A DNA stretch of 64,000 nt. Source: Candidatus Solibacter sp. (GTDB taxonomy: Bacteria; Acidobacteriota; Terriglobia; Bryobacterales; Bryobacteraceae). Below, one piece after another: positions 1,818 through 59,594 of this stretch. The notes below the pieces were generated by a model. It did not search any database. It saw only the letters and a program-made list of their open reading frames with translations, and was not told where the DNA came from. A program made the translations under genes and the position numbers. Location of the stretch: contig JBBIQR010000002.1 in NCBI GenBank assembly GCA_037442245.1, positions 2,727 through 66,726 of the forward strand, written 5' to 3'. Position 1 is the stretch's first letter. Every line of letters begins with the position of its first letter.

Positions 1818-1826
1818 TCGAACCAA

Positions 1827-1866: not shown

Positions 1867-1918
1867 TGACTTCTGACTTCTGACTTCTGACTTCTAGCCT
1901 CTAGCTCCCAGCTCCTCC
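1863..1918. repeat. Degenerating tandem heptamer array (cttctga x4, then cttctag, cctctag, ctcccag, ctcctcc)
   Basis: Direct reading of 1863-1918: four perfect 7-nt units followed by four progressively diverged units. Lies in the flagellin-flagellin intergenic region, immediately upstream of the sigma-28-like promoter. Confidence 0.85.
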
Positions 1919-1927
1919 CCCTCCGAT

Positions 1928-1954
1928 TCAAGTTTTCCTCCACCCACCCGATAA
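1928..1954 (+). promoter_or_regulatory. Sigma-28 (FliA)-type promoter of flagellin 2
   Basis: TCAAGTTT (1928-1935) - 11 nt - CCCGATAA (1947-1954), against the FliA consensus TAAAGTTT-N11-GCCGATAA. Located about 50 nt upstream of ATG 2006. SD AAGGA at 1994-1998. Confidence 0.7.
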
Positions 1955-2005
1955 GTCCAGTTGAATCCGGCAAGATGCCGGAGCGAACCACGAAAGGATT
2001 TCACC

Positions 2006-4360: not shown

Positions 4361-4374
4361 CCGCAACCCTGACC

Positions 4375-4410
4375 CCGGCGGGAGGGGCGACTCTCCCGCC
4401 GGCCGATTTT
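4375..4410 (+). terminator. Rho-independent terminator after flagellin 2
   Basis: Perfect 10-bp stem ccggcgggag (4375-4384) / ctcccgccgg (4393-4402), 8-nt loop, then ccgatttt. Confidence 0.7.
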
Positions 4411-4424
4411 CGCCCGACGGGGGC

Positions 4425-4452
4425 TAAAGTTCCGGGCCGAACCTGACGAATA
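4425..4452 (+). promoter_or_regulatory. Putative sigma-28-type promoter of fliD
   Basis: TAAAGTTC (4425-4432) - 12 nt - GACGAATA (4445-4452). The -35 is near-perfect and the -10 matches 5/8 to GCCGATAA. Located 25 nt upstream of ATG 4477. Confidence 0.45.
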
Positions 4453-4476
4453 GTCTGTTCGGCCCTGGAGTCGTTT

Positions 4477-10740: not shown

Positions 10741-10789
10741 GCCTGCCCTATCATATCAGCGCCTCCGGGCGGCGCCCGCCGGTGTCCGG

Positions 10790-12148: not shown

Positions 12149-12276
12149 GGTATCGCAGACCCATCGCGGCTGCCGCAAAACAAAAAGGACCGGGCGTCAC
12201 GGAGGAGAGACGCCCGGTCTAAGGACCCGGAATCCACTCGGAGGTGGCGGATTCCAGGGGTGGAGGATACGCCCGT

Positions 12277-17713: not shown

Positions 17714-17740
17714 ATCCCGGGTGGAGTAAGATAGTCTTCC

Positions 17741-32895: not shown

Positions 32896-32993
32896 ATCCC
32901 TGCGATTACATAGTCTGGCTTCGGCGTCCGCGCGGCCCTGCGCCGCCGGGTGCCGCGCATCTTTTTCGAGGGGAATGAGGAGTCTATCGAGTC

Positions 32994-34172
32994 ATGAATG
33001 GTGATGCTGTTTGCTGCCTGCGCCGGCTTGTTGGGGGCTGGTGTGTGCTGGCGCTGGCGTGCCTGGGACCGGCGTGCCGCCGTGTACCGCCCGCGGAGGG
33101 CAAGCGCGATAGCGGCGCCGTGAGCACGCAACCGGGGCTATTCACCGTGCCCAGCGACCAGATGGCGCACCTCAAAACGGTGCAGGTCCGCACCTCGAAC
33201 TGGCCGGCCGCGGTGCAAACCACCGGCACCGTGGATTGGGACGCCGACCACACGACCCAGGCCATTACGCAGGTGAACGGCCCCATCACCCGCATCCTCG
33301 TCGATCTCGGGACGCCGGTGCAAAAGGACCAGCCGCTGCTCTACGTCTCCAGTCCCGATGTCGCCAACGCGGTCGCCGCCTACCGCAAAGCGCGCAATCG
33401 CGAACTGTATAACCAGCGGATTGTGGACCGGATGAAGGAGTTGCTCGACCGTGGCGCCATCGCCCTCAAGGACTACCAAAGCAGCGAAGCGGACTATAAC
33501 GACGCCCGCACCGACGTACAGAACAGCCTGCAGGCGCTGCGCATCTTCGGCATCACTGGCAAGGACATCGAAGCCGCGGAAAAGCAGGGCGCCGCGGTGA
33601 ATACCGAGCTTGCGGTGCGTTCGCCCATCTCCGGCGCGGTTGTGCAGAAACTGGTCTCGCCCGGCATGGTGATCCAGGCCGGGCAGACGGTCTGCTTCGC
33701 CATCAGCGACGTCTCTACCGTATGGGTGCAGGGCCATATCTTCGACCGCGACCTGCCCACGGTGCGGATCGGCGATCCCGTGGATGAGACGAATCCCTCG
33801 CTGCAGCGCAGTTTCCACGGCACCGTCGCCTACATCGGCAGTTTCGTCGATCCCAACACCCGGACCACACCGGTGCGCATCGTCACGAGCAATCCGGCGG
33901 GGCTGCTCAAGAAGGACATGTTCGTCGATGCGGTGGTGCGCACCGGAATGCGGAGCCGAATCCTGGTCGTCCCGGTATCGGCGGTGCTGCGCGACGACAA
34001 GAACGAACCGATCGTGTACGTGCAGGCCGAACCCGGCAGGTTCGCGCTGCGCAGCGTCACCGTCGCCGGCCAACAGGACGGATTGGCCGCGATCTCCAAC
34101 GGATTGCAGGAGGGAGAAACCGTGGTGAGCGACGGCAGCCTGTTCCTGCAGTTCGCCAACATGATCCGATAG
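32994..34172 (+). CDS. RND efflux membrane fusion protein (CzcB/HlyD family)
   Basis: Lipoyl/beta-barrel MFP layout (VDWDADHTTQAITQVNGPITRILVDLGTPVQKDQPLLYVSSPD...). Lies directly upstream of the RND pump gene. Confidence 0.85.
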   Translation: MNGDAVCCLRRLVGGWCVLALACLGPACRRVPPAEGKRDSGAVSTQPGLFTVPSDQMAHLKTVQVRTSNWPAAVQTTGTVDWDADHTTQAITQVNGPITRILVDLGTPVQKDQPLLYVSSPDVANAVAAYRKARNRELYNQRIVDRMKELLDRGAIALKDYQSSEADYNDARTDVQNSLQALRIFGITGKDIEAAEKQGAAVNTELAVRSPISGAVVQKLVSPGMVIQAGQTVCFAISDVSTVWVQGHIFDRDLPTVRIGDPVDETNPSLQRSFHGTVAYIGSFVDPNTRTTPVRIVTSNPAGLLKKDMFVDAVVRTGMRSRILVVPVSAVLRDDKNEPIVYVQAEPGRFALRSVTVAGQQDGLAAISNGLQEGETVVSDGSLFLQFANMIR

Positions 34173-34184
34173 GGCGCAAACCAC

Positions 34185-37100
34185 ATGATCGCGAAACTCG
34201 TCTCCTTCGCACTCCGGCAGCCTTTCCTCATCGTGATCGGCGCGATCGCCCTGATGATCTACGGCGCGATCTCGTTTCAGCATTTGCCGATCGACGCCTA
34301 TCCCGATCTTTCGCCGCCGCACGTCGAAATCATCACGCAGTGGCCGGGCCATGCCGCCGAAGAGGTGGAGCGTCTGGTCACGATCCCGATCGAAATCGAA
34401 ATGAACGGCATCCCGCGGCTGGGCTCGCTGCGCTCGATTTCTCTCTACGGCCTCTCCAGCGTGCAGATGAATTTCGAGTACGGCGCGGATCCGTATTTCG
34501 TCCGCGAACAGGCCTTCGAGCGCGTGGCCAATGCGGCGATCCCTTCCGGGCTGCAGCCCTCTCTCTCGCCGTTGTACAGTCCCAGCGGCCTGATCTACCG
34601 CTACGTGCTGCAAAGCCCGGACCGATCTCCGCAGGAGTTGAAGATCCTGGAGGACTGGGTGGTGGAGCGGCACTTCCGTTCGATCCAGGGAGTCGCCGAC
34701 GACTCCGGCTTCGGCGGCACCACGATGCAATACCAGGTGCTGCTCGATCCCTCCAAGTTGTTCGCCTATGGCATCACGGTTCCGCAGGTGACGACGCAAC
34801 TCGGCAACAATAATGCCAACTCGGGCGGCGGCTTCTACTCGCAGGGCGGGCAGTTCTATTACATCCGCGGCCTCGGACTGGTGCGCGACATGGCCGATAT
34901 CGGCAACATCGTCCTGCAGCAGAAAGGCGGCATCCCGGTATACGTGAAGGACATTGCCCAGGTGCAAATCGGCCACGCGCCGCGACTCGGGCAGTTCGGA
35001 TACATGCATCAGCAGGAAGCCGTGGAGGGCGTCATCCTCATGCGCGTGGGCGAGCAGGCGCAGGTGATTCTGCGGCGCGTCGAGGAGATGACGAATGAGC
35101 TGAACCGGCACGTCCTGCCGCCGGATGTGAAGGTGGTTCCCTATTACGATCGCCAGGGCCTCATCGAGGAAACCACCAAGACCGTCGAGGACAACCTGTT
35201 GCGCGGCATGTTGCTGGTGCTGATTATCCTCGGGCTGTTCCTGTTCAGCGTGCGCACGGCGCTGATTGTGGCGGTCACGATTCCGTTCGCGCTGTTGTTT
35301 TCCTTCATCTGTCTCGACTGGCGGCACATTCCGGCGAACCTGCTTTCCATCGGCGCGATCGATTTCGGGATCATCGTCGACGGCGCGGTCGTCATGGTGG
35401 AGAACATTTTCCGGGAACTCGCCATGCACCGTGAGGACGAAGAAGTTCACGTGGTGGACGTGATCCGCGCGGCGGCGCACGACGTGGAGCGGCCGATCTT
35501 CTACGCCATCGCGGTCATCATCGCCGGATACCTTCCAATTTATGTGCTCACCGGACCGTCCGGGCGCCTCTTTCAGCCGATGGCGGACACTATGTCGTAC
35601 GCCCTGCTGGGCGCGCTGCTGTGCGCTCTGACGGTGCTGCCGGTGCTGTGCTCCTACCTCCTCCGCCGGCACGTCCATGAGCCGCGGGTGCGGGTGTACG
35701 AGTGGATCCGCGCTGTGTATGGCCGGATGCTCGGCTGGTGCCTGCGCCACCGCGCGGTCACGGTGATGGCCGCGCTCGCGGTCTTCGGCAGTTCGCTGCT
35801 GTTGATCCCCTTCATCGGCGGCGAGTTCATGCCGCACCTCGACGAGGGCGCGCTGTGGGTTCGCGCTACCACGCCCTACACCATCTCGTTCGACGAAGCC
35901 GCCCGGCTCTCCCCTCAGATTCGCGACATCCTGCTCGGCTTCCCACAAGTGACTACCGTGGCCAACGAACTCGGCCGGCCCGACGACGGGACCGACCCCA
36001 CCGGTTTCTTCAACAACGAATTCTACGTCGGGCTCAAGCCTTACTCCGATAAATCCTGGGCCGGCACGATCCGCACCAAGCCGGAACTGATCCAGGCCGT
36101 ACAGAAGAAGCTGGCGTCCTTCCCGGGGATCATCTTCAACTACACGCAGCCCGCCGAGGATGCGGTGGACGAAGCCGAGACGGGCTTGAAGAGCGCGCTC
36201 GCGGTCAAGATATTCGGCGCCGACCTCGCCACGCTCGAACAGAAGGCGTACCAGGTGAAGAGCGTGCTTGGCAACATCCCCGGAATCGCCGAAATTACGG
36301 TGGTGCGCGAACTTGGGCAGCCCAGCCTGACGATCACGCCCGATCGCGCCAAACTCGCGCGCTACGGGTTGAACGTGAGCGACGTCAACACCCTGGTCGA
36401 GACCGCGCTCGGAGGCACGGCGGCGACCCAGGTGATACAGGGCGAGCGGCAGTTCGATCTGGTCGTCCGCATGCAGGAGCAGTACCGCAGCGACGAAAAC
36501 GCCATCAAGAACCTGCTGATCGCGACGCCGGACGGGCAGTACCTGCCGCTGAGCCAGTTCTGCGAGATCCATGTGGAAAGCGGCGCTTCGTTCATCTACC
36601 GCGAGTCCAACTCGCGCTACATCGGGGTACAGTTCAGCGTGGAAGGGCGCGACCTGGCCAGCGCCGTGGGTGAAGCCCGCCGCAAAGTGGACGAAGCCGT
36701 GAAGCTGCCCATCGATTACCACTTCGATTGGGGCGGCGAATACAAGGAATATCTGGCCTCGCAGGAGCAGATGAAAGTTATTCTGCCGCTCACGGTGCTA
36801 CTGATCCTGCTGATCCTGTTCGCGCTCTACGGCAACATCAAATTCCCGCTGATCATTTTCGTCAGCGTGCTGATGACCGAACCGGTGGGCGGTCTGCTGG
36901 CGCTCTACCTCACCCACACGCCGTTCAGCGTTTCGTCCATGCTGGGCTTCGTCGCGCTGATGGGCGTGGCGGTACAGACCAGCGTGATCCTTTACTCGTT
37001 CATCAACAAACTGCGGCTCGAAGGACACGACATTCCCACCGCGACCCTGGAGGCATCGCTATTGCGGCTGCGTCCGATCATGATGACCGCCCTGGTGGCC

Positions 37101-37271
37101 TGTTTCGGATTGCTGCCGGCGGCGATGTCCACCGGGATCGGCAGCGATTCCCAAAAACCGTTCGCGATCGTGATTGTGGCCGGGCTGGCCTCCCGGCTGT
37201 TGCTTTCGATCTTTCTCGCGCCGGTGCTCTACGCGCTGGCTGCTCGCGACGGCGATACGTTGCAGGTTTAG
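34185..37271 (+). CDS. CusA/CzcA-family heavy-metal efflux RND transporter
   Basis: 1028 aa with 12-TM RND architecture. Heavy-metal-efflux (HME)-type TM4 motif AIDFGIIVDGAVVMVENIF. Confidence 0.9.
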   Translation: MIAKLVSFALRQPFLIVIGAIALMIYGAISFQHLPIDAYPDLSPPHVEIITQWPGHAAEEVERLVTIPIEIEMNGIPRLGSLRSISLYGLSSVQMNFEYGADPYFVREQAFERVANAAIPSGLQPSLSPLYSPSGLIYRYVLQSPDRSPQELKILEDWVVERHFRSIQGVADDSGFGGTTMQYQVLLDPSKLFAYGITVPQVTTQLGNNNANSGGGFYSQGGQFYYIRGLGLVRDMADIGNIVLQQKGGIPVYVKDIAQVQIGHAPRLGQFGYMHQQEAVEGVILMRVGEQAQVILRRVEEMTNELNRHVLPPDVKVVPYYDRQGLIEETTKTVEDNLLRGMLLVLIILGLFLFSVRTALIVAVTIPFALLFSFICLDWRHIPANLLSIGAIDFGIIVDGAVVMVENIFRELAMHREDEEVHVVDVIRAAAHDVERPIFYAIAVIIAGYLPIYVLTGPSGRLFQPMADTMSYALLGALLCALTVLPVLCSYLLRRHVHEPRVRVYEWIRAVYGRMLGWCLRHRAVTVMAALAVFGSSLLLIPFIGGEFMPHLDEGALWVRATTPYTISFDEAARLSPQIRDILLGFPQVTTVANELGRPDDGTDPTGFFNNEFYVGLKPYSDKSWAGTIRTKPELIQAVQKKLASFPGIIFNYTQPAEDAVDEAETGLKSALAVKIFGADLATLEQKAYQVKSVLGNIPGIAEITVVRELGQPSLTITPDRAKLARYGLNVSDVNTLVETALGGTAATQVIQGERQFDLVVRMQEQYRSDENAIKNLLIATPDGQYLPLSQFCEIHVESGASFIYRESNSRYIGVQFSVEGRDLASAVGEARRKVDEAVKLPIDYHFDWGGEYKEYLASQEQMKVILPLTVLLILLILFALYGNIKFPLIIFVSVLMTEPVGGLLALYLTHTPFSVSSMLGFVALMGVAVQTSVILYSFINKLRLEGHDIPTATLEASLLRLRPIMMTALVACFGLLPAAMSTGIGSDSQKPFAIVIVAGLASRLLLSIFLAPVLYALAARDGDTLQV

Positions 37272-37281
37272 AAGGGGCGTC

Positions 37282-38535
37282 ATGAAGATGCAGCGCATGA
37301 TCCGGTATTTGTGTTTGGCTCTGCCGCTGGCGGGCAGCGCCTTGGGGCAGACGGCCCTCGACTGGCGGCAGGTGGTGGACAAGTTCCGCGCCGCAAACCC
37401 AAGCCTCATCGCCGGGCAGCTCACCATCCGGGAGTCCAAGGCTTCGGAGGTGACCGCCTATCTCCGTCCGAACCCCACCGCCAGTTTCTCGCTCGATCAG
37501 TTGCAGGTCTTCAATGGCAATCCGTACCGCCCGCTGACCAACGCCCTGCCCATCGTCGCGGTGGACTATGTGCGGGAGCGCCGGCACAAGCGCGAACTGC
37601 GCCTACAGAGCGCGCAACAGGGCACCGCCATCGCCGAGTCGCAGGAGTTGGATCTGGAGCGCAGTCTGCTCTTCAGTCTGCGCACCGCCTTCGTGCAGAC
37701 CCTGCAAGCCAAGGCGCTGCTGGCCAGCGCGAAAGAGAACCTGGATTACTTCGACAAGGAGTTGCTGATCCATCGCGCCCGCTACCGTTCCGGCGACATC
37801 GCGCGCGTGGACCTGGACCGCATCGCGCTGCAGCGGGTGCAGTACGAATCCGACTACCAGTCCGCTCTGGTGAACACGCGGACCGCCAAGATCACGCTGC
37901 TGATGCTGCTGAACGATCGCACACCGGTGGACCGCTTCGATGTCACCGGGCCCTTCGGGTTCCAGGAGAAGATGCAACCGCTCGACGACTTCCACGCGAT
38001 GGCGGCCGATTCGCGCCCGGACCTGCGTGCGGCGGCCCAGGCCGTGACCAAAGCCACCACCGACCACAAACTGGCGATGGCCAATGGCGCCACCGACCCG
38101 GACATCTCGATCGACTTCGGCCATACCGGCGTGGACTCTTTCGTGGGCGGCGGCGTCAGCTTCCCCCTGCGCATCTTCGATCGCAACCAGGGCGAGAAGG
38201 CGCGCACCGAGATCGACATCACGCGCGCGGAACGGCAGCGGGACGTCACGCAGGCGCAGGTCTTCAGCGACGTCGATTCCGCCTACTTCACACTGCTCGG
38301 CACGGTCAGCCAATTGCGCCCTTACATGGGCTCCGACGGCTATCTGGAGACCGCCGGCCGCATCCGCGAAACCATGTCCTACTCCTACCAGAAAGGCCAG
38401 GCGGCGCTGGTGGACTACCTGGACGCGCAGCGCGACTACCGCGCGACGCAGGTGGCGTATCTCAACCTGGTGGGCGCATACCTCACCGCCGCCGGGCAGC
38501 TCAATATGGCGGTCGGGCGCGAGGCCATCCCGTAA
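37282..38535 (+). CDS. TolC-like outer membrane efflux protein (CzcC-type)
   Basis: ATG 37282 with signal peptide MKMQRMIRYLCLALPLAGSALGQ. Two OEP repeats. Position after the RND pump. Confidence 0.85.
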   Translation: MKMQRMIRYLCLALPLAGSALGQTALDWRQVVDKFRAANPSLIAGQLTIRESKASEVTAYLRPNPTASFSLDQLQVFNGNPYRPLTNALPIVAVDYVRERRHKRELRLQSAQQGTAIAESQELDLERSLLFSLRTAFVQTLQAKALLASAKENLDYFDKELLIHRARYRSGDIARVDLDRIALQRVQYESDYQSALVNTRTAKITLLMLLNDRTPVDRFDVTGPFGFQEKMQPLDDFHAMAADSRPDLRAAAQAVTKATTDHKLAMANGATDPDISIDFGHTGVDSFVGGGVSFPLRIFDRNQGEKARTEIDITRAERQRDVTQAQVFSDVDSAYFTLLGTVSQLRPYMGSDGYLETAGRIRETMSYSYQKGQAALVDYLDAQRDYRATQVAYLNLVGAYLTAAGQLNMAVGREAIP

Positions 38536-41074: not shown

Positions 41075-41197
41075 ATCCGGCGAATGTACCACACGCTCGC
41101 AACCCGTGCGCCGGGCGGGCCGGGACGCTCCGGCGCATGCCGCACAACCGCGCCCCTTGTGGTAATCTCGTAGCACCTGGAGGAGGGTAGACATAAC

Positions 41198-41746
41198 GTG
41201 ACCAGAAGAATGTGGATGCTGCTGGGCGCCGCGCTGCCCGCGTTGCCCGGCGGCCTTCGGGCACAGGCAGTCGCGCCGCCGAAGACGCAACTGAAAGAGG
41301 GCGATACGGCCCCGGACTTCACGCTCGGTTCGACGGCCGGCGGCAAGGTGACGTTGAGCGACTTCCGCGGTAAGAACACGGTGGTGCTGGCGTTCTTCCC
41401 GGCCGCTTTCACCGGTGGTTGAACGAAGGAATTCACGGCGTACCAGGCTGGTATCGCGAAATTCGAAAGCACCGACACGAAGGTTTTTGGAATCAGTACC
41501 GACAACACTCCGTCGCAACGGGAGTTTGCCGCAAAGAACGGGATTCAGGTTCCGCTGCTGAGCGATTTCGCCCAGCGCAAGGTCAGTAAAGAGTACGGCG
41601 TCCTCATCGAGGCGGCGGGGATTGCCAACCGCGCCACCTTCGTCGTCGATAAGGACGGGAAGATCGTCTACATCGAGCAGGGCAATTCGGCCATCGACCC
41701 CACGGGCGCCGAGACCGCCTGTAGCCGGTCCGCTCACAAGAAGTGA
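41198..41746 (+). CDS. Secreted peroxiredoxin (AhpC/TSA, AhpE/Bcp-like) with in-frame TGA (probable selenocysteine) at codon 75
   Basis: Signal peptide [24 protein letters not shown]. Sequence reads ...[20 protein letters not shown](41420-41422)[49 protein letters not shown]...[17 protein letters not shown]... The same frame stays open for 107 more codons to TGA 41744-41746. The TGA sits where the peroxidatic Cys is expected. A hairpin follows at 41429-41464. Confidence 0.7.
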
Positions 41747-41799
41747 GGCTCAGCGCCGGGCGGCGTCCTCGCGGCGTTCCCGGCGTTTTGCCGCGTGCC

Positions 41800-43497
41800 A
41801 TGCGCCGGGATGCGAGGAACCCTTTGCTGTGGATGCCGCTCGCGGCGCTCCTGGCCGCTCCGGTGGCCCTCCGCCCAGCCGATTCTCCCACCGCAAGCGC
41901 CGGTTCCTTCGTGGATGTGACCGGGCGCGCCGGCGTCCGCTTCGTCCACCAGGCGAGCCTCACGTCGCGCAAGTATCTGGTCGAATCGATGAGCGGCGGG
42001 GTGGCCGTGTTCGACTACAACGGCGACGGACTGCCCGACATCTACCTGGTGAACGGCGCGCAACTGCGCGACCCGATGCCCGCGGACGCGCGGCCCGGAA
42101 AGTCCGATCCGCGCTTCTGGAACCGGCTCTACCGCAATAACGGCGACGGCACGTTTAGCGATGTGACCGTGCAGGCCGGCGTACAAGGGAATGGCTACGG
42201 GATGGGAGTCGCCGCGGCCGACTTTGACAACGACGGCCACACCGACCTCTACGTCACCAGCTTTGGCGGCAACATCCTCTACCACAACAATGGGGACGGC
42301 ACGTTCAGCGATGTGACCGCTCAGGCGGGCGTCTCCGGCAGCGGTTGGTCCGCCGGCGCGCTCTTCATCGACTACGACAAGGATGGCCTGCTGGACCTCG
42401 TGGTCTCGCGTTACCTCAAGTGGGACTTCTCGAAGGACGTCTGGTGCGGCCTGCGCAAGCCCGGGTACCGTGCCTACTGCCACCCGGATCAATTCGAGCC
42501 GGTCACCCATCTTCTGTTTCACAACCTCGGGCACGGACGCTTCGAAGACGTCTCCGAACGGAGCGGTCTGGCGCGCTTTCCGGGCAAAGGTCTGGGCCTG
42601 GCGATGGCCGATTTCGACCGCGACGGCTGGCCCGATATCTTCATCGCCAACGACGCGGTCCCGCAGCAACTCTTCCGCAATCGCGGCGACGGCACCTTCG
42701 AGGAGGTGGCGCTGGCGCGGGGCGTGGCTTACGATTCCGACGGCCGCAGTTTCTCCGGCATGGGCACGGACTTCGCCGATTACGATAACGACGGCTGGCC
42801 CGACCTGTTCGCCAACGCGCTCGCCACACAGCGCTACGCCCTGTTTCACAACGTGAAGGGCTCCTTCGATTACGTCTCCGACTCGAGCGGCGTGGGCGGC
42901 GCCAGCATGCTGCATTCCGGCTGGGGCAGCCGCTTCTTCGATTTCGACAACGACGGCTGGAAGGACCTGTTCGTCGCGCAGGGCCACGTGATGGACAACA
43001 TCCAGCTCACCGAACCGCAACTCCGCTACCTGGAGCCGCCGCTGCTCCTGCGCAACGTCAAGGGGCGGTTTGCCGATGTGTCGGCGCAGGCGGGAGCGCC
43101 TTTCCGCATCCCGCGCGCGGCGCGCGGCGCGGCGTTCGGCGACCTGAACCGCGACGGGCGCGTGGATATCGTGATCAACTGCAACAATGCCGCGGCGGTG
43201 GTGCTGGAGAACCGCTTCGTCAACGCCAATCATTGGCTGATGGTGGATACGCAGGGCAGCCGCAGCAACCGCGACGGAATCGGCACGCTCATCCGGCTGG
43301 TGACCGCGTCGGGGCTGGAACAGTATGCGACCGTGACCAGCGGCGGCAGCTACCTCTCGTCGAACGATAAGCGGGTTCACTTCGGGCTGGGTCCGGAGAC
43401 CCGGGTGAAGCTTCTGGAACTGACGTGGCCCAGCGGGCAGGTGCAGCGGTTGCGCGACCTCGCGGCGGACCGCGTCCTTACCGTGCGCGAGCCTTGA
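41800..43497 (+). CDS. FG-GAP repeat / ASPIC-UnbV domain protein (CRTAC1-like), paralog 2
   Basis: Signal MRRDARNPLLWMPLAALLAAPVAL. Repeated DxDGDGxxD FG-GAP loops. UnbV_ASPIC C-terminus (NRDGIGTLIRL...GGSYLSSND...FGLG...LTWPSG). An alternative GTG start at 41743 overlaps the peroxiredoxin stop. Confidence 0.9.
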   Translation: MRRDARNPLLWMPLAALLAAPVALRPADSPTASAGSFVDVTGRAGVRFVHQASLTSRKYLVESMSGGVAVFDYNGDGLPDIYLVNGAQLRDPMPADARPGKSDPRFWNRLYRNNGDGTFSDVTVQAGVQGNGYGMGVAAADFDNDGHTDLYVTSFGGNILYHNNGDGTFSDVTAQAGVSGSGWSAGALFIDYDKDGLLDLVVSRYLKWDFSKDVWCGLRKPGYRAYCHPDQFEPVTHLLFHNLGHGRFEDVSERSGLARFPGKGLGLAMADFDRDGWPDIFIANDAVPQQLFRNRGDGTFEEVALARGVAYDSDGRSFSGMGTDFADYDNDGWPDLFANALATQRYALFHNVKGSFDYVSDSSGVGGASMLHSGWGSRFFDFDNDGWKDLFVAQGHVMDNIQLTEPQLRYLEPPLLLRNVKGRFADVSAQAGAPFRIPRAARGAAFGDLNRDGRVDIVINCNNAAAVVLENRFVNANHWLMVDTQGSRSNRDGIGTLIRLVTASGLEQYATVTSGGSYLSSNDKRVHFGLGPETRVKLLELTWPSGQVQRLRDLAADRVLTVREP

Positions 43498-49000: not shown

Positions 49001-49491
49001 GACAGAAGCTGCGTGAAATTTCGTCCATTCAGCGGCAGGTCCACCACCTGTTTGGCCGCGACCACGGCGCCCACCTCGGCGGTGGAGGCCTGCACCAGTT
49101 CGCCCGACGCCTCTACCGTGACGGTGTCCTGCACGGCGCCCACTTTGAGCGCGACGTCGAGTGTGGCCGTCTGGTTGACCGCGAGCGCGAATTGCGGAAT
49201 CTTGGTGGTCTGGAACCCCGGCGCGCTGGCCTGCAACGTATAGTTGCCGGGCGTGATGCTTAGGAACACATAGTTGCCGGCGTTGTTCGAGAGCGCTTGC
49301 CGCTCGACGGACGTATCCGTGTTGCGCAGCACTAAATTGACGTTGGGCACCACGCTGCCGCTGGCGTCGCGGACGACGCCGGTGACGGACGCGCTCGACA
49401 GTTGTGCCGAGGCCGGTATCGAGAAAATCCCAAGCGCGAGCGCGACCGCGACGAGGCTGCGCGCACCACTCGTGCCTGACAACAAGGTCAT
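46081..49491 (-). CDS. TonB-dependent outer-membrane receptor with N-terminal carboxypeptidase-regulatory-like domain
   Basis: Signal peptide. CarbopepD_reg-like module (GVVRDASGSVVPNVNLVLRNTDTSVERQALSNNAGNYVFLSITPGNYTLQASAPGF). Plug region (VVDLPLNGRNFTQLLSLSPGV). Long beta-barrel ending ...LQFGLKIIF. Confidence 0.9.
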   Translation of the reverse strand: MTLLSGTSGARSLVAVALALGIFSIPASAQLSSASVTGVVRDASGSVVPNVNLVLRNTDTSVERQALSNNAGNYVFLSITPGNYTLQASAPGFQTTKIPQFALAVNQTATLDVALKVGAVQDTVTVEASGELVQASTAEVGAVVAAKQVVDLPLNGRNFTQLLSLSPGVAPVSVSQNAGGFGNVASGTAFVFPSINGQTNRSNFFMTDGLNNQGAFSSTYAVPPIVDAIEEFKVNGHNDLAEFGGALGGIVNVATKSGTNELHGSAWEFLRNDAFNARSTFQNSVTPFRQNQYGIAAGGPVWIPKLYNGKNKTFFFAAYEGFQFSQAANSYLHLPSDQELSGDLSGQAQAFNPFSTRPDPNNPGGFLRDPFPGNQIPANLINTQLVSFVKQVRPQLFNVGIGNFNAEDNTPFLQHQNEFTTRIDQNLGSKDFFWFRYSALYYDTSGSGGLPVVTNTIKDNPGQNFGASWVHTFSPTLMLQAQFGRSHQETNSVTVYNGLNAGQTAGTLGFSPNFAGNFIGGANLMPSVGIAGYSTSIPGSGLSLNPNETNVHQWKANVSKTIGSHTLRWGGELNSSTFESLYNSASVSYAYQQTADPAHLNLNPGNSMASFLLNVPDSAGRRNVHETTRWGGVMGFYFQDSWKAAPRLTINLGLRYDRTFIPPYGRPDTVGQNGGIETGSIDFNSGNYILQQLPPPCSQRGHAPCIPGDGTLPAHVIVSPNGKIYHDTTTNWGPRIGLAYRVSETMAVRAGFGIYYDNWAAVTQTSQNYEGDWPDIGQQLANNLNVPIPGTATPVVTGLNPFAAGGGLFPAPTPFNQVQWYYDPYGKNPYSMQWNFGIAKELNPTTTVSIDYVGSGSRRLDVGGYYNVALTPGPGNPADRAPFPYIHPSYYDRTIGRGNYNSLQFQFNKRFAKGLAYQVSYTYSKSIDMGASGWYGVEGQSVEDPYNLGRDRSVSGFDLTQVLSANLVYELPFGKGKTFDTRNPVANALVGGWQINTITTARSGLPYNITVPGDLANTGNTGYLRANLVGNPTLSSPTAQEWFNTAAFAAPAQYTFGNLGRFAMRSSAVWNVDLSVFRQFAIREGKLVEFRAESFNTPNTVILGSPNGNVLDPNFGKIFGTATGPRSLQFGLKIIF

Positions 49492-49523
49492 ACATCCCCT
49501 CCCTTTAACGATAAAGTGGATCT

Positions 49524-49552
49524 ACCATATCATGCGCCCGAAAATGTGTCAA
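49524..49552 (-). promoter_or_regulatory. Sigma-70-like promoter for the TonB-receptor/TPR operon
   Basis: On the minus strand: TTGACA (plus-strand 49547-49552) - 17 nt - TATGGT (plus-strand 49524-49529). The -35 lies in the left arm of the inverted repeat at 49546-49574. Confidence 0.45.
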
Positions 49553-49567
49553 GGGCGTCGAAGCGCC

Positions 49568-49597
49568 TTGACACCGCTCCGTTGCCGGGAATATATT
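49568..49597 (+). promoter_or_regulatory. Sigma-70-like promoter for the cytochrome/FG-GAP operon
   Basis: TTGACA (49568-49573) - 18 nt - TATATT (49592-49597). The -35 lies in the right arm of the inverted repeat at 49546-49574. Confidence 0.5.
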
Positions 49598-49642
49598 GAC
49601 CCGGCAGGGCAGGCCACCGGCCGCCTCCCGCGGACCTCTCCC

Positions 49643-51301
49643 GTGAGAACGAAACCTCCAGCACGGATCGCGATTCCGCTTCTCTTTGTCTGCGCGATTT
49701 CCGCGAAGGACCCGGCCGGATACACAGGATCTGAGGCGTGCGCCGCCTGCCACCAGGAGATCTACCGCCAATACAAGCGCACGGGCATGGGGCGCTCGAT
49801 GAGGCCCGCCGCCGAAGCGCCGCTGGCGCGTGAAGTCACGGTGCACACCGAAGCGCTGCATCGCGATTGCCGGGTCTTCCGTCGCGGCGGCGACCTGTAT
49901 CAATCCGAGTCGCAGCCCGGCGTGTTCGAGAACGAAAACCGGCTGGTGTACGCGATCGGCTCGGGAGAGAACGGCATCAGCTTCGCCGTGCGCCGCGGCG
50001 ATTACCTGTTCCAGGCGCCGCTCTCCTATTACACCCGGACGCGCGCCTGGAACCTCTCCCCGGGCTACGAAGATTCGGCCGGCGGATTCAACCGTCCCAT
50101 CCAGGAAGCCTGCATCATCTGCCACGCCGGACGTCCGCGCGCAGTCGCGGGACGCGACGGACTCTATCTGGATCCCGCTTTTGCCGAGCTCGCCATCGGC
50201 TGTGAGAATTGTCACGGTCCCGGCGAGCGCCACATCGCCGCGGTGGAGCGCGGAGACGCGCCGCCGCACGATCCCGGCATCGTCAATCCGGCTCGCTTGC
50301 CGGCGCGCCTGGCCGAGGACATCTGCATGCGCTGCCATCAGGGCGGCGATGCGCGGGTGCTGCTGCCCGGCCGCGAGTACAACGACTTTCGCCCCGGCAT
50401 TCCGCTGCTAAGGACTGTCGCCATCTTCGCGCTGCCCTCGCTGCCGCCGTCCGGCGACCTGCTCCAGCATCACGAGGCCATGAAGCTGAGCCGGTGTTTT
50501 CGCGCAAGCGGCGGCAAACTGAGTTGCCTCACCTGTCACGACCCGCACCAACAACCGGATGCGGCCGCGGCTCCGGCATTCTTCCGTGCGCGCTGCCTGC
50601 GCTGCCACACGGAAAGCAGTTGCCGCGTACCGCTGGCGGAGCGCCGCGGAAATCCCGTCCCCGATAACTGCATCGCGTGCCACATGCCGCGGCGCGATGT
50701 CACGAACATCTCGCACTCGGCCCTGACCAACCACCGCATTCCGGCGAACCCGGCGATGACGCCGTCCGCGCCTGAGCGAAGAGAAGACCTGCCCGGTTTG
50801 ACTCTGCTCGATACCGCGGCCGGCGAGCCGCAACTGCCGCTGCTCACGCGGCTGAGCGCATACGGGGAACTGATGGACCGCGATCCCGCGCTACGCGGCC
50901 GCTACCTCGAGTTGCTCGCCGGGGCGGCGCGCACGGCGCCGGACGATCCCCTGGTCCTGGCCGCGCTCGGCCGCAAAGCGCTCGCCGAGGGAAGCACGGA
51001 CGCGATCCCCTACCTCACGCGCGCGGAGCAGCAGGGCGCGCCCGGCGCGTCGACTTACGTCGACCTCGCGCAGGCGCTGGCGCAGGCCGGACTCGTGGAC
51101 GAATCGGCCGCGGTCCTGGCCCGCGGCGAGCGCTTGTTTCCGTATGCCGCGACCCTGCGCAAACACCTGATCCTCGCCTACATCACGTTGAAATCGTACC
51201 CGCAGGCGAAGACCGCACTCGAGCGCTACGTGCGGGATTTTCCCGAAGACGCCTTCATGCGCGGATTGCTCGAGAAGGTGCGGACCGCCGCACCGCGTTG
51301 A
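49643..51301 (+). CDS. Heptaheme c-type cytochrome with C-terminal TPR-like domain
   Basis: Seven CxxCH motifs (CAACH, CIICH, CENCH, CMRCH, CLTCH, CLRCH, CIACH). Signal-like IAIPLLFVCAISA. C-terminal helical repeats. The GTG 49643 start was chosen to lie downstream of the predicted promoter and is uncertain. Confidence 0.8.
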   Translation: MRTKPPARIAIPLLFVCAISAKDPAGYTGSEACAACHQEIYRQYKRTGMGRSMRPAAEAPLAREVTVHTEALHRDCRVFRRGGDLYQSESQPGVFENENRLVYAIGSGENGISFAVRRGDYLFQAPLSYYTRTRAWNLSPGYEDSAGGFNRPIQEACIICHAGRPRAVAGRDGLYLDPAFAELAIGCENCHGPGERHIAAVERGDAPPHDPGIVNPARLPARLAEDICMRCHQGGDARVLLPGREYNDFRPGIPLLRTVAIFALPSLPPSGDLLQHHEAMKLSRCFRASGGKLSCLTCHDPHQQPDAAAAPAFFRARCLRCHTESSCRVPLAERRGNPVPDNCIACHMPRRDVTNISHSALTNHRIPANPAMTPSAPERREDLPGLTLLDTAAGEPQLPLLTRLSAYGELMDRDPALRGRYLELLAGAARTAPDDPLVLAALGRKALAEGSTDAIPYLTRAEQQGAPGASTYVDLAQALAQAGLVDESAAVLARGERLFPYAATLRKHLILAYITLKSYPQAKTALERYVRDFPEDAFMRGLLEKVRTAAPR

Positions 51302-53116: not shown

Positions 53117-53150
53117 CGGGGCGGCGGTGGTACCCTGAAGGCCACTGGGA

Positions 53151-54884
53151 ATGTGGACTCGCCGGGAGATCATCGCGCTCCTCGCGCCCGCGGCGGCGTG
53201 GGGACAGGGAGTATCGTCGCGCAACGTGAAGCCGCAGCCCCGCGGCAAACCGTCGGGCCTGCCGTTCCACGCGCGCTTCACCGATGTCGCGGAACACGCC
53301 GGCCTGCGCGCCCCGCTGATCTACGGTCCGGCCGATCACAAGGACTACATCCTGGAAACGGTCGGCTGCGGCTGCGCCTTCATCGACTACGATAACGACG
53401 GTTGGCTCGACATCTTTCTGCTCAACGGCACACGCCGCGAAGGCGCGCCCGCGGGCGCCACCAACCGCCTTTACAAGAACAATCGCGACGGCACCTTCAC
53501 CGACGTCACGGAAAAGGCAGGGTTGCACCGCACCGGCTGGGCCTCGGCGGTATGCGTGGGCGACTACAACAACGACGGCTTCGACGACCTCTTCGTCACC
53601 TATTGGGGACAGAACGTTCTCTACCGCAACAATGGCGACGGCACCTTCACCGACGTGACCCGGCAAGCCGGGCTGCTGCACTCTGGAACCCGCTGGGGGT
53701 CGGGCTGCACCTTCATCGACTACAACCGCGACGGACTGCTCGACCTCTTCGTCGCCAACTACCTGGAGTTCGATTTCGAATCCGTGCCCAAGCCCGGCGA
53801 GAACGCCAACTGCAACTGGAAGGGCATCCCGGTGAATTGCGGGCCCCGTGGACTGACGCCCTCGGCGCCCGCCCTCTACCGCAACAACGGCGACGGCACG
53901 TTCACCGATGTGAGCGCCGCTTCCGGCGTGGCGCGCGCCAAGGGCAGCTACATGATGACCGCCGCCGCCGCGGACTTCGATAACGATGGCTGGCCCGATC
54001 TCTACGTGGCCTGCGACTCGACTCCGAGTTTCCTGCTACGCAACAACCGCGACGGCACGTTCACCGATATCGGCCTCGAGAGCGGTGTCGCGCTCAACGA
54101 GGACGGCATGGAACAGGCGGGCATGGGAGTCGGCGTCGGCGACTACGATCTCGACGGCAACCTCGACGTGCTCAAGACGCACTTCTCCGACGACACCTGC
54201 GTTCTGTATCACAACGACGGCAAGGGGAACTTCGAGGATCTCACCGTGCGCTCGGGCCTGGCGGTGGAGACGCGCTTCATCTCCTGGGGCGGCGGCATCT
54301 ACGACTTCGATAACGACGGCTGGCCCGACGTCCTCTGGGTCACCGGGAGCGTGTATCCGGAGATCGAAGCCAAGCTGCCCGCCTACCCCTTCCGGTCGCC
54401 GCGGGTTCTGTTCCGCAACCTCGGCGGCGGCCGTTTCGAGGAACTGATCGATCAGGGCGGCCCCGGCATTTCCACACCGCACGCGAGCCGCGGCTGCGCT
54501 TTCGGTGATTTCGACAACGACGGCGACATCGACGTGCTCATCATGAACCTCAATGAGCCGCCCTCGCTATTGCGCAACGATGTGACCGGCGGAGGAAACT
54601 GGCTCAAGGTGAAGCTGACGGGCACGAAATCGAACCGCGGCGCGGTTGGCGCGCGGGTCACCGCGGCTTACGGCGGCAAGGTGCAGGCGCAGGAAGTGCT
54701 CAGCCAGTCCAGCTTTTATTCCGCCAGCGACCAGCGGCTCCATTTTGGATTGGGCGCGGCCGCCACTGCCGACCTCGATATCCGCTGGCCTAACGGAAAT
54801 CGCGAGCGGATCGCCGCCGTTCCCGCCAACCGGTTCGTGGTGATCCGCGAAGGATCGGGCATCGTGAAATCGCAGGCGTGGTGA
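53151..54884 (+). CDS. FG-GAP repeat / ASPIC-UnbV domain protein (CRTAC1-like), paralog 3
   Basis: Tat/Sec-like MWTRREIIALLAPAAAWGQ. DYDNDGWxD FG-GAP loops repeated. UnbV_ASPIC C-terminus (NRGAVGARVT...SQSSFYSASD...FGLG...IRWPNG). Confidence 0.9.
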   Translation: MWTRREIIALLAPAAAWGQGVSSRNVKPQPRGKPSGLPFHARFTDVAEHAGLRAPLIYGPADHKDYILETVGCGCAFIDYDNDGWLDIFLLNGTRREGAPAGATNRLYKNNRDGTFTDVTEKAGLHRTGWASAVCVGDYNNDGFDDLFVTYWGQNVLYRNNGDGTFTDVTRQAGLLHSGTRWGSGCTFIDYNRDGLLDLFVANYLEFDFESVPKPGENANCNWKGIPVNCGPRGLTPSAPALYRNNGDGTFTDVSAASGVARAKGSYMMTAAAADFDNDGWPDLYVACDSTPSFLLRNNRDGTFTDIGLESGVALNEDGMEQAGMGVGVGDYDLDGNLDVLKTHFSDDTCVLYHNDGKGNFEDLTVRSGLAVETRFISWGGGIYDFDNDGWPDVLWVTGSVYPEIEAKLPAYPFRSPRVLFRNLGGGRFEELIDQGGPGISTPHASRGCAFGDFDNDGDIDVLIMNLNEPPSLLRNDVTGGGNWLKVKLTGTKSNRGAVGARVTAAYGGKVQAQEVLSQSSFYSASDQRLHFGLGAAATADLDIRWPNGNRERIAAVPANRFVVIREGSGIVKSQAW

Positions 54885-56176: not shown

Positions 56177-57586
56177 CTAGCTCCACAGTTCGTTGACCGG
56201 TCCGTAGAGGTTCTGATCGCTGAAGGGGACGTACTCAAAGCCGCGGCCGAAGGGATCGTCGTAGGATACCGTGGTCCAGTTGATTCCCATCGCGGAGTAG
56301 ATGGTGGCCTCGATGTCCTCCACGTTCACGCTGCGATTGCGCGACCATCCCGGGTCCTGCGTCGCCGACCCGTCCGCCGTGGTCGAGCCGATGACTTTAC
56401 CGCCTTTGATCCCGGCGCCGGCGAAGACGGCCGATTGCTGCGGCCAATGGTCCCGACCGCCCGCCGCGGTCAGCGGCCCCACGGTGCGGCCGAATTCTCC
56501 CACCATCACCACCAGCGTCGAATCCAAAAGGCCGCTGCTCTTCAGGTCTCCGATCAACGCCGCGTACCCGGCATCGAGCTGCTTGCCCAGCGTGTACATA
56601 TTCGGTCCCTTGGGATTCGTCTGCCCGTAGATGTCCTGGTGAAAATCCCAGCTCCCGAAGGATATCTGGACGAAGCGCGTGCCCTGATTCGCCTGGAGCA
56701 CCTGCTTGGCCACCAGGCAGGCGTTGCCGAAGCCGCTCGAACCGTAGCGTGTGCTGTCGGTGGAGGCGAAACTGAACGCGCTTTTCACCACCGGGTTGTA
56801 CATCATGAGTTTCGCCTGCTCGTAGAACGCTTCGTAATCGTCCAGCGGCTTGCCGTAGGGCGAATCGATTCGCAGAGGATCGTCGAGCGCGTGCAGCCCC
56901 TGGTACATCTGCGCGAAGCGTCCACTGGATGCGCCGGTGGGATCGTTGGGATTGGTTGTGTTCGGCAGACCCGCGGTCGAGGGCGTCACTTTGAATGGCG
57001 CGTACTGCGCGGCGAAGTATCCGGCGCCGGCGCACGCGTTCGAGTTCAGCGCGAGAAACGCCGGGAACACGCTTCCGGCGGCGCCTTTTTCGCGCGCCAC
57101 CACGCTGCCGATGTTCGGCGCGACATTGCCCAGCACCGCCGCGGGGTTCCGTCCGATCTGCGCCCACCGCTGCGCCAGTGTGTGTACCAGGGCGTGCGCG
57201 GACATGGAGCGAATGATCGCCATGTCCGGCAACTGCTGCGCCATGTTGGGCAGCAGGCCCACCGGCCACGTGATGCCGTTGGCCGTCCCCGGCTGGAAGT
57301 CCGATGGCGTCACGCCGTTCACCACCTTCAGGTCGAACGAGTCGGTGTGGCTGATGGCGCCCGTCAGCAGGATGAAGATCACGTTCTTCGCCGTGTTGAT
57401 CGTCGTTACGCTACTCTGCGCCGCCGCCTGCTGCGCGCGCAGCATCGGGGCCAGAAACGAGCAGGTCAGCCCGGCGCCGGCCAGTTCGAAGAAGCCGCGG
57501 CGTGAAAGGTGCGGCCGCGCGACGAACGAGCGGTGGCGCTCCGGATACTCGCGGTACATGCGGTCCGCGCGTTGCTGTTCGGTCAT
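56177..57586 (-). CDS. DUF1501 (sulfatase-fold) protein with twin-arginine signal
   Basis: Tat motif SRRGFFELAGAG. Conserved VVMVGEFGRT...GRDHWP region typical of DUF1501. Confidence 0.85.
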   Translation of the reverse strand: MTEQQRADRMYREYPERHRSFVARPHLSRRGFFELAGAGLTCSFLAPMLRAQQAAAQSSVTTINTAKNVIFILLTGAISHTDSFDLKVVNGVTPSDFQPGTANGITWPVGLLPNMAQQLPDMAIIRSMSAHALVHTLAQRWAQIGRNPAAVLGNVAPNIGSVVAREKGAAGSVFPAFLALNSNACAGAGYFAAQYAPFKVTPSTAGLPNTTNPNDPTGASSGRFAQMYQGLHALDDPLRIDSPYGKPLDDYEAFYEQAKLMMYNPVVKSAFSFASTDSTRYGSSGFGNACLVAKQVLQANQGTRFVQISFGSWDFHQDIYGQTNPKGPNMYTLGKQLDAGYAALIGDLKSSGLLDSTLVVMVGEFGRTVGPLTAAGGRDHWPQQSAVFAGAGIKGGKVIGSTTADGSATQDPGWSRNRSVNVEDIEATIYSAMGINWTTVSYDDPFGRGFEYVPFSDQNLYGPVNELWS

Positions 57587-57595
57587 GGCATCCTC

Positions 57596-59461
57596 CTAAT
57601 AATTGAAAACGAAATCTACCTTGTTATAGAGCGACCAGAGCAGGTTCTCCGCGGACTGGCTGTGCATACCCGCCTTGAGCAGGTTCAGCGCGGCCGTCAT
57701 TTCGTCCTGCGACGGCGGACGCGAAAGCACGGTCAGGAACAATTGATTCACCAGTTGGCTGTCGGGCAGCGTCATGCTGCTGAACAGCAGGCTGCCCGCG
57801 GGTCCGGTGGACTTGACCCGGCTCATCACGAACGGATCGTTCATCAGGTTGAGCGCCTGCGCGATGGAGCCGTCTCCGCTGCGCACCTGATCGTCGCGGT
57901 TGCCGCGCAGGAACGAATCGAGGAACGCCGTCACCTCGCTGCCCGCATTCGGCGTGTTCAAAGGCTCGGGGAACTGCATCGCCCAGGTCAGCGCGCCGTT
58001 GGCAGCCACGGTGTAGCTGGGGAGCACGTTGCTCGATTGCACGATCGCGTCGTGGACCTCCTCCGCCCACAGGCGCCGCACGAATTTGCGGGCGTAGAGC
58101 GCGTCCCACGCCGGGTTGTACGTCCCCGGATAGCGCGAGGAGAGTTGGTACGCGTTTGAGTTCGCGATGGTCCGCATCAGCCACTTCAGGTCGTAGTTGT
58201 TGTCGATGAATTCCTGCGCGAGCGAGTTCAACAGGCGCGGGTTCGATGGCTGCAGCGTCCACGGCGACGGAGGCGGATTGTCGGGGTCCAGCCGCAGCGG
58301 GTCGAACTGGTCCGGCGGGTCCACCAGTCCCACGCCGAAGAAATAGGCCCACACGTAATTCACCGCCGCGCGCGCGAACTGGAAGTCCCCGGTCATGGAT
58401 CGCGCCAGCGCCACACGGTAGTTCTCCCCCGCCTTCGGCGTATCGCCGTTAAAGAAGTACACCGGAGCCACATTCTTTTCCGTGCCGACCGGTTGCCGCG
58501 CCGGACGGTTGCCGGTGGTCGTGTTCAGCGGGTAATCCGTGCGCGCCGCCGGCGTGTTGTCGTCCACGCTCCAATAGAAGACGTTCTTCACGCCGGTGCC
58601 CACCGTCCTCGCCTGCGTGTGGGAAAGGTAGGACGCCAACTGCCACGCCAGGTAGCGCGTCTGCTGACTGCCCCACAGACTCAGCGTGTCCAGGTGCCCG
58701 CGCCCGTTGTGGCACAGCAGGCAGTTGACGTGCGCCAGACCCAGAAACATGTTCGCCAGGTTCGCGGTCTGCTGATCGAAGATGTCCTGGATGGGTCCGC
58801 CGGTCACTACGCCGCCCACCAGCAGGTTCAGTTGACCGGCGGTGTAGCTGTCGCCGCCGGTCGCGGTGATCAGGTCGGCCGCGATCTGGTTGTACGGTTT
58901 GTCCGCCGCCAGCGCCGCGCGGATGTAGTCGTTGAACGCCTTCACGCCTTCGGGAAAACGGCGGATCTGCGCGTTCTGCGAGTTGTTCTGGTAGAGATCG
59001 CCCAGCCACATGGTCCATTTGTCGATCCACTCGGGGCGGGCAAGCAGTGTGTCGATCAGTTTCGCGCGCTTGTCCGGGCTCGTATCGGCGACGAACGCCA
59101 TGACCTGGCCGGGGGTAGGAATCCGCCCCGTCAGATCCAGGGTCACGCGGCGGATGAATTCGTAATCGGTGGTGGCAGGCGCCGGGTTCACCCCGGCGGC
59201 CTGCATCGCTCCGAAGAGGTAGTAATCGATCGTGCCCTGCTTTTCCGCGGTCGCGGTGCGCGATCCGGGAGGCGCCACGCGCGGCAGCACGGCTGCCACC
59301 GCACTGGTCAGCGCGCCGATCTCCCGCTGGTGCGGCGTACGCCCGCTCTTCGCGAGGGCCTGCGCGGCGAAGTGGTCGTGCCGCGCGCCGAAGTATTCGC
59401 AGTCCGGCTGCGCGAACAGTGGCGCCGCGAGAACGATCCCCAGTAAGAGTCTGCTTCCCAT
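57596..59461 (-). CDS. DUF1549/DUF1553 domain protein
   Basis: ATG 59461 with a signal peptide. DUF1549 hallmark FIRRVTLDLTGRIPTPGQVMAFVADTSPDKRAKLIDTLLARPEWIDKW. DUF1553-like C-terminus. The canonical partner, DUF1501, is 9 nt downstream. Confidence 0.85.
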   Translation of the reverse strand: MGSRLLLGIVLAAPLFAQPDCEYFGARHDHFAAQALAKSGRTPHQREIGALTSAVAAVLPRVAPPGSRTATAEKQGTIDYYLFGAMQAAGVNPAPATTDYEFIRRVTLDLTGRIPTPGQVMAFVADTSPDKRAKLIDTLLARPEWIDKWTMWLGDLYQNNSQNAQIRRFPEGVKAFNDYIRAALAADKPYNQIAADLITATGGDSYTAGQLNLLVGGVVTGGPIQDIFDQQTANLANMFLGLAHVNCLLCHNGRGHLDTLSLWGSQQTRYLAWQLASYLSHTQARTVGTGVKNVFYWSVDDNTPAARTDYPLNTTTGNRPARQPVGTEKNVAPVYFFNGDTPKAGENYRVALARSMTGDFQFARAAVNYVWAYFFGVGLVDPPDQFDPLRLDPDNPPPSPWTLQPSNPRLLNSLAQEFIDNNYDLKWLMRTIANSNAYQLSSRYPGTYNPAWDALYARKFVRRLWAEEVHDAIVQSSNVLPSYTVAANGALTWAMQFPEPLNTPNAGSEVTAFLDSFLRGNRDDQVRSGDGSIAQALNLMNDPFVMSRVKSTGPAGSLLFSSMTLPDSQLVNQLFLTVLSRPPSQDEMTAALNLLKAGMHSQSAENLLWSLYNKVDFVFNY

Positions 59462-59594
59462 ATCCTCTCCTCGAAACAGCCGTCTGAGCGAACAAACCCG
59501 CCGCCCCGTCAAAACACTCGATGAATTATTCTTAAGCGTTTCCGCGCCGGTACCATAGCCCGAAAGGTGGAGTGTTTCCCGCTATCATGAGTAA

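Follow-up and report, generated by a model that had tools for sequence, protein, structure and literature searches.

Selenocysteine (Sec)-containing peroxiredoxins have been catalogued since 2001-2006, and PrxU of Eubacterium acidaminophilum is one of them. AhpE of Mycobacterium tuberculosis is a 1-Cys enzyme and has no signal peptide. In the SECIS of Escherichia coli fdhF, the stem begins about 11 nt after the UGA and the bulged U does not lie on the 3′ side. Peroxiredoxins (Prx) have an established place among bacterial selenoprotein families, and the 2006 census of bacterial selenoproteins (Zhang, Romero and Gladyshev; PMC1794560) lists 12 of them. No acidobacterial Prx is among those 12, Solibacter usitatus being listed only under other families, and the Acidobacteriota were represented by three selenoprotein families and four proteins (PMC1794560). 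The common bacterial SECIS is described as an apical hairpin of 5-6 bp, located a few nt after the UGA and carrying an invariant guanosine in its loop (PMC4607533). Literature searches combining AhpE with selenocysteine, and Solibacter with selenoprotein, found no paper specific to the subfamily that we describe here.

The gene in question lies in a stretch of 64,000 nucleotides from Candidatus Solibacter sp. (the window; unless a locus is named, coordinates are positions in it). An earlier note on this DNA had proposed that an in-frame UGA, at the position of the catalytic Cys of a secreted peroxiredoxin, is recoded as selenocysteine with the help of a SECIS-like hairpin, and comparative sequence analysis supports that interpretation. 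The reading frame runs from GTG 41198 through 74 sense codons to TGA 41420-41422, and from there through 107 sense codons to TGA 41744-41746; the first TGA is the sole interruption of the 182-codon frame (Table 1). This frame structure and the peptides quoted for it proved exact on re-reading, and the list of open reading frames does end at 41422, as had been stated. GTG 41198 is favoured as the start over ATG 41210 because the TRR residues that come right after the GTG are kept in the orthologue L001; ATG 41210 is the start of a 70-aa fragment present in the public protein collection. The window was also searched for other pairs of genes joined by an in-frame TGA, and none was found except one coincidental same-frame neighbour at 7178.

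Table 1. Features of the peroxiredoxin gene, in window coordinates
Feature	Position	Strand	Basis or remark
Complete gene of a predicted selenoprotein, AhpE-like peroxiredoxin precursor	41198..41746	+	182 codons (U at 75) + stop
Shine-Dalgarno-like GGAGGAGGG	41180..41188	+	9 nt 5′ of the GTG start; read from sequence
Probable Sec-type signal peptide, cut before VAPP	41198..41269	+	n/h/c architecture
Active-site motif P68-A-A-F-T72-G-G-U75 (PxxxTxxU)	41399..41422	+	AhpE alignment
UGA predicted to be read as selenocysteine 75, peroxidatic residue	41420..41422	+	aligns with Cys45 of AhpE
Putative SECIS hairpin	41438..41457	+	MFE, RNAalifold consensus, covariation
Possible outer helix GAAUU (41429-33)/AAUUC (41460-64)	41429..41464	+	unsupported
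Codon of the conserved peroxiredoxin Arg R145, in IANRATF	41630..41632	+	aligns with GIANRGTF of AhpE
TGT, Cys175 of the C-terminal tail, candidate resolving residue	41720..41722	+	conservation
True stop, also TGA, with no SECIS 3′ of it	41744..41746	+	sequence

When Cys is written at the TGA, the 182-residue product matches the Pfam family AhpC-TSA (PF00578) across residues 35-159 and profile positions 2-124 of 124 (E = 5.6e-37; 126.9 bits against a cut-off of 26), a match that spans the TGA. The top seven PDB matches are all M. tuberculosis AhpE (E = 1e-25 to 3.5e-27), with BCP, Tpx and 2-Cys Prx types scoring below it. In the best alignment (5id2/1xvw, E = 3.5e-27) the TGA column is that of the peroxidatic Cys in the AhpE sequence FFPLAFTGIC, and the proposal that the TGA replaces this residue is borne out by this alignment together with the Pfam span. 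The active-site motif and the catalytic Arg are both present, R145 being invariant in the Cys-form alignment. By sequence the protein belongs to the AhpE-like branch of the peroxiredoxins (PF00578). It reaches no equivalog cut-off in NCBIfam, scoring 62.1 bits against the PrxU model (NF040737; cut-off 270) and 51.6 bits against Prx-SUH (NF045827; cut-off 298). We take both to be selenoprotein-aware Prx models, judging by their names and by the "exception" type of Prx-SUH; on these scores the protein is a member of neither, and the two models represent different Prx subfamilies.

The first question is whether the interruption is shared by relatives. When orthologs were sought in one genome for each prokaryotic species, 19 close relatives with 51-86% identity were obtained, all metagenome-assembled genomes (MAGs), labelled Acidobacteria, Bryobacteraceae/Bryobacterales, Solibacter/Solibacteraceae, Acidiferrales or Terriglobia, plus one labelled "Verrucomicrobiia" that is probably mis-binned. 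TGA stands in the same column in 19 of these 19 nearest genomic orthologues, and the protein is conserved on both sides of it. Compared with L001, codon differences after the TGA are 21 synonymous versus 8 non-synonymous, and those before it 16 versus 4; because of this synonymous excess, which follows the same pattern as upstream, the downstream frame is taken to be translated and under purifying selection. A pseudogene created by nonsense mutation, or an error of sequencing or assembly at 41420-41422, would suit a stop codon that breaks the ORF and a public collection that holds only a fragment of the protein, but either would have to coexist with the same TGA in 94 unique sequences from independent assemblies, with purifying selection on the downstream frame, and with an RNA-level constraint after the TGA that is absent from the Cys forms. 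We give this explanation practically no probability. The earlier note had named close relatives with TGC or TGT and a vanished hairpin as the mark of a pseudogene; the nearest relatives instead keep TGA without exception, and alignment with Cys-containing orthologs yields the classic U/C column. Since the TGA, the U/C column and the hairpin described below are conserved among relatives, a sequencing error or a private nonsense mutation is excluded.

Termination is the default behaviour of UGA, and it could be supposed that the ribosome stops here, the two halves being made separately or only the 74-residue N-terminal peptide being functional. No in-frame start codon or ribosome-binding site was found after the TGA, however, and the Prx fold and the catalytic Arg145 lie downstream of it; a split at this point removes the catalytic residue itself. 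The chance that this account is correct is negligible, and Sec insertion at the UGA is the reading that we carry forward.

Wider sampling gave a similar picture. A metagenome scan of soil contigs was seeded with a profile of the Cys forms and the best 80 loci were kept, a pattern-seeded and not unbiased sample in which 72 of 82 family genes have TGA at this column and the remaining 10 have TGC or TGT. Sec forms are clearly common in the family, and among close relatives retrieved at the DNA level the Sec form outnumbers the Cys form. When Sec-form sequences are pooled, TGA is found in all 94 unique ones, with C in the Cys forms. At the protein level, the best 120 matches have Cys at the column in 103 cases, the Cys forms being 62-72% identical, and Trp in 17. 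The Trp-containing sequences, which are the closest matches (P0001-P0017 and P0027), are all JGI metagenome gene calls on short contigs, and Trp at this column is the outcome that would be expected from a translation table in which TGA encodes Trp. These 17 matches are also what could be cited for a UGA that is read as one of the standard amino acids Trp, Gly or Cys, either under an altered code or by general read-through. Such a reading is very improbable in view of three observations: UGA is an ordinary stop in this organism, ending this gene and many Pfam-confirmed genes of the window (FliD, LacI, SDR, ASPIC/UnbV); neither Trp nor Gly is able to replace the peroxidatic residue, which is Cys in the homologues; and a dedicated conserved hairpin follows this UGA only. 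Because the orthologues share the TGA, the downstream frame is under purifying selection and UGA is otherwise a normal stop, pseudogene, sequencing error and reassigned code are together excluded, and selenocysteine remains the preferred identity of residue 75.

Several further observations concern the family at large. Tandem peroxiredoxin paralogues about 600-690 nt apart occur at L104 (1080/1687), L125 (126/812), L160 (960/1630) and L018 (3193/3784); two of these loci combine one Sec and one Cys copy, the other two carry a pair of Sec copies, and all the paralogues are intact with signal-peptide-like N-termini. More distant Prx genes with TGA at the peroxidatic column were seen in a Planctomycetota MAG (L028, 3163-3222) and a Vicinamibacterales MAG (L035, 3130-3189); these have 41-44% identity, lack the C-terminal Cys tail, and carry a hairpin of other sequence at the same offset. 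The codon context at window 41414-41425 also differs between the forms: across the 94 Sec forms, GGT GGT is preferred before the UGA and ACG after it, while Cys forms prefer GGC GGC TGC ACC at the same codons. This difference may reflect an effect on UGA decoding or may be part of the RNA signal.

The hairpin that follows the UGA has the structure GCG-UACCA[GGC]UGGUA-U-CGC, with an upper stem of 5 bp, a lower stem of 3 bp, a 1-nt 3′ bulge (U41454) and a loop at 41446-41448. Its stem starts 15 nt after the UGA, and its loop, the first base of which is G, starts 23 nt after the UGA, just where the apical loop had been placed before. As a single sequence it is unremarkable: over 41420-41475 its MFE is -11.2 kcal/mol, shuffled sequences give -10.99 ± 2.41 (z = -0.09) with 91 of the 200 at least as stable, and the 101-nt context (41400-41500) gives z = -0.24. 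No Rfam family reaches its gathering score in the window, and at E<=10 the sole match in 41380-41520 is a chance glutamine-riboswitch on the minus strand, with no SECIS-type match. It is only the comparative data that make the combination of UGA and hairpin significant. RNAalifold on 20 genomic sequences recovers the inner hairpin only (alignment columns 19-38 = window 41438-41457), with 96.9% of cells paired and compensatory change in two pairs. The hairpin first drawn for this site was longer, pairing GAATT (41429-41433) with AATTC (41460-41464) outside TACC (41441-41444) with GGTA (41450-41453). Its coordinates were exact and its upper part, 41438-41457, stands; the outer part does not. In the outer GAAUU/AAUUC helix no pair is changed on both sides and one pair is broken in 7 of 20 sequences, and the helix is absent from the RNAalifold consensus.

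Evidence for the inner hairpin is stronger in the larger set. Among the 94 unique Sec forms, 91.0% of cells are paired. Column shuffles give 83.5 ± 0.6, none of the 500 attaining the observed figure, and pairing drops to 20-58% once the 3′ partner is displaced by 1-3 columns. Double-sided changes are seen in 7 of the 8 hairpin pairs (58 cells). At pair 24/32 the choice between the synonymous Tyr codons TAC and TAT covaries with that between GGT (Gly) and GAT (Asp) three codons on, giving C-G in 64 sequences, U-A in 29 and a mismatch in one, and pair 21/36 is seen as G-C, A-U, C-G and U-A. Synonymous sites are frozen in the Sec forms, with CAG in 91 of 91 Gln codons, GCT in 75 of 76 Ala codons (+9; 74 of 75 in a second count), GGT in 61 of 62 Gly codons and GAT in 29 of 29 Asp codons, in contrast to the organism's GC3 of ~0.8. 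At codons +8 to +10 the third position has an entropy of 0.00-0.12 bit, while other four-fold codons in these genes show 1.2-1.9 bit. In 12 Cys forms, on the other hand, the same codons are GGC, GAC and AAC, only 2-6 of the 8 pairs are formed, and most sequences fold no hairpin there. Distant TGA forms (L028, L035, L133, L120) have hairpins of differing sequence at the same offset. Conservation and covariation of the hairpin in Sec forms only supports selenocysteine over a nonsense-mutated pseudogene.

Part of the hairpin's conservation coincides with the conserved peptide YQAG/DI. It could be argued from this overlap, from the lack of unusual stability, and from differences in detail from the E. 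coli fdhF SECIS that Sec is inserted but that the 41438-41457 hairpin is not the SelB-binding element, being conserved for the peptide or for another mRNA function. We regard this as very unlikely, though less so than the other alternatives. The overlap with the peptide has to be weighed against the freezing of synonymous sites, seen most clearly in the Ala codon at +9 and the Gly codon, and against a synonymous TAC->TAT change that covaries with a non-synonymous GGT->GAT change; moreover, Cys forms of similar peptide context lose the pairing, and divergent Sec forms still fold a hairpin at this position from another sequence. The position of the hairpin and its loop G also agree with the description of the common bacterial SECIS (PMC4607533). 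In two Cys forms (L083, 1705-1764; L085, 1197-1256; AYQASL), TAC CAG GCT is retained along with a remnant hairpin at the SECIS position, which may mark a recent Sec-to-Cys conversion. The signature of the family element, UAY CAG GCU GRU AU with Y/R covariation, provides a clean training or benchmark case for bacterial SECIS detection.

Taking the hairpin as a SECIS, it is very probable that SelB with Sec-tRNA(Sec) binds at 41438-41457 and that Sec is inserted at codon 75. In the mechanism that we propose, the mRNA hairpin would recruit SelB carrying Sec-tRNA(Sec), SelB would deliver selenocysteine to the UGA at 41420-41422, and the ribosome would go on to the stop at 41744-41746. The 182-residue precursor would bear an N-terminal signal peptide, and its probable fate is Sec-dependent export, with the periplasm or cell envelope as destination. 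In that compartment peroxides would be reduced by the U75 selenolate, which would sit together with Arg145 in the PxxxTxxU pocket; the selenenic acid would probably be resolved by Cys175 with formation of a selenenylsulfide, itself then reduced by a thiol reductant of the envelope. The recoding part of this scheme builds on signals whose conservation is documented above, and we infer the export, the chemistry and the reductant. At the N-terminus a basic n-region is followed by a hydrophobic core, for which the 11-residue Kyte-Doolittle maximum is 1.78, and by A-Q-A at -3/-1. This segment forms an extension of ~27 residues that is absent from AhpE, whose residue 9 aligns with residue 28, and Sec and Cys orthologues alike begin with a hydrophobic stretch of a comparable kind. 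Residues 1-24 are probably a signal peptide, and the mature enzyme is probably periplasmic. Cys175 is invariant in 34 aligned Cys forms (column A168-C169-x-R171 of A2) and is found also in Sec forms and in the Anaeromyxobacter Sec-Prx, a distribution that points to it as the residue that may form the selenenylsulfide.

Neighbouring genes were surveyed in the window and around the fetched loci, and no thiol-redox gene or conserved operon partner was found near the gene. A SurA-like PPIase gene recurs in convergent orientation at 15 loci; in the window, a DUF4136 gene lies alongside in divergent orientation. An FG-GAP/ASPIC-UnbV gene (41725-43497) begins immediately after the peroxiredoxin stop; it is one of three such paralogues in the window, together with those at 20134-22032 and 53139-54884, and two of the three lie just downstream of multihaem-cytochrome/TPR proteins (17735-20437 and 49274-51301). 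The window also contains two large flagellin genes with fliD (3-5808, +), an RND efflux operon encoding HlyD_D23, AcrB and OEP (32979-38535, +), and a DUF1501 / DUF1549-DUF1553 pair (56177-59581, -). At 9580-12196 (-) a sulfatase gene adjoins a radical-SAM/SPASM gene, the arrangement expected of an anaerobic sulfatase-maturating enzyme pair, which these two genes may represent.

Insertion of Sec needs decoding machinery, and this is documented for relatives in the clade only, by analogy with which the present organism would be a Sec decoder. In S. usitatus, SelA, SelB and two FdhA selenoproteins were reported in the 2006 survey (PMC1794560), and another acidobacterium, Occallatibacter riparius, was treated as Sec-utilising in a 2025 study (PMC12013277). 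Homologues of SelA and SelB that share 70-90% identity with their S. usitatus counterparts are numerous, several of them coming from MAGs named Bryobacteraceae, Candidatus Solibacter, Acidiferrales or Acidobacteriia. None of the 30 window ORFs that were scanned against Pfam matched SelA, SelB or SelD. ARAGORN found no tRNA-Sec in the 64-kb window, which has no tRNA of any kind, or in the 160 fetched loci, and no SelA or SelB homologue was placed on a contig carrying a Sec-Prx. Many SelB homologues (P0248, P0275, P0322 and others) on contigs of 0.5-7.3 Mb are only 345-525 aa long, most with no detected winged-helix domain; these short calls may be long-read frameshift artefacts or may represent a shorter SelB. 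On two Bryobacterales-like contigs a tRNA-Pro(CGG) gene immediately precedes selA in opposite orientation (L161, 5868-5945; L162, 5868-5944, -), and in these two selA neighbourhoods the upstream tRNA is tRNA-Pro and not tRNA-Sec. The N-terminus of S. usitatus SelA given in the 2006 supplement resembles a translated tRNA gene.

The prediction that standard gene callers would truncate this gene has come true, given that the public protein collection holds only the 70-aa N-terminal fragment. NCBIfam has no model able to rescue the gene, its best scores being below their cut-offs. The annotation error is systematic: a fragment is stored in one case, and Trp is placed at the catalytic position in 17 of the 120 best protein matches. 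It is quite possible, if still somewhat doubtful, that an exported two-residue (Sec75/Cys175) AhpE-type selenoperoxiredoxin is the predominant form of the enzyme in soil Acidobacteriota (Bryobacterales, Solibacter and Acidiferrales, with outliers in Vicinamibacterales and Planctomycetota MAGs), and that curated selenoprotein models lack it while public annotations systematically cut it short or mistranslate it. If that is true, the cell-envelope peroxide defence of a largely aerobic soil phylum, one that ranks among the most abundant, would depend on selenium supply. The locus adds a well-supported selenoprotein to the Acidobacteriota, a phylum with few catalogued. That Sec forms outnumber Cys forms among the close relatives retrieved at the DNA level is noteworthy, since these soil bacteria are presumably aerobic and the enzyme is probably periplasmic. 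Replacement of Cys by Sec in peroxiredoxins is long established and no concept is changed; the finding is of value for annotation and for the prevalence that the Sec form seems to have in soil Acidobacteriota.

Among solved structures, the best match to the protein is M. tuberculosis AhpE (Rv2238c; PDB 1xvw, 1xxu, 5id2; E = 3.5e-27), which has in common with it the FFP-AFTG-C/U motif, the Arg of ANRxTF and the overall length of the catalytic domain. AhpE uses Cys, however, whereas the window protein would have Sec, about 27 extra residues at the N-terminus, and a C-terminal tail with an invariant Cys. The PrxU and Prx-SUH models of NCBIfam likewise describe Prx-type peroxidases, but the protein falls below the cut-offs of both. 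Like that of E. coli fdhF, its putative SECIS is a short hairpin that lies within the gene, closely follows the UGA on the 3′ side and has a conserved apical-loop G and one bulged U; it differs in having another sequence, a GGC loop (AGGCU if the closing A-U opens), a bulge on the 3′ strand, and a stem that begins 15-18 nt after the UGA. Like other members of the bacterial Sec-Prx family, the protein has U in place of the peroxidatic Cys in a T/SxxU motif and coexists with Cys homologues. The Prx_2 of Anaeromyxobacter dehalogenans in the 2006 list is 47% identical to it over 150 residues, and the two share AFTxGUTxE, ANRAT and the C-terminal IDPxGA..xC tail. Unlike the Prx proteins of that list, the present subfamily is predicted to start with a signal peptide, and its members come chiefly from soil Bryobacterales, Solibacter and Acidiferrales.
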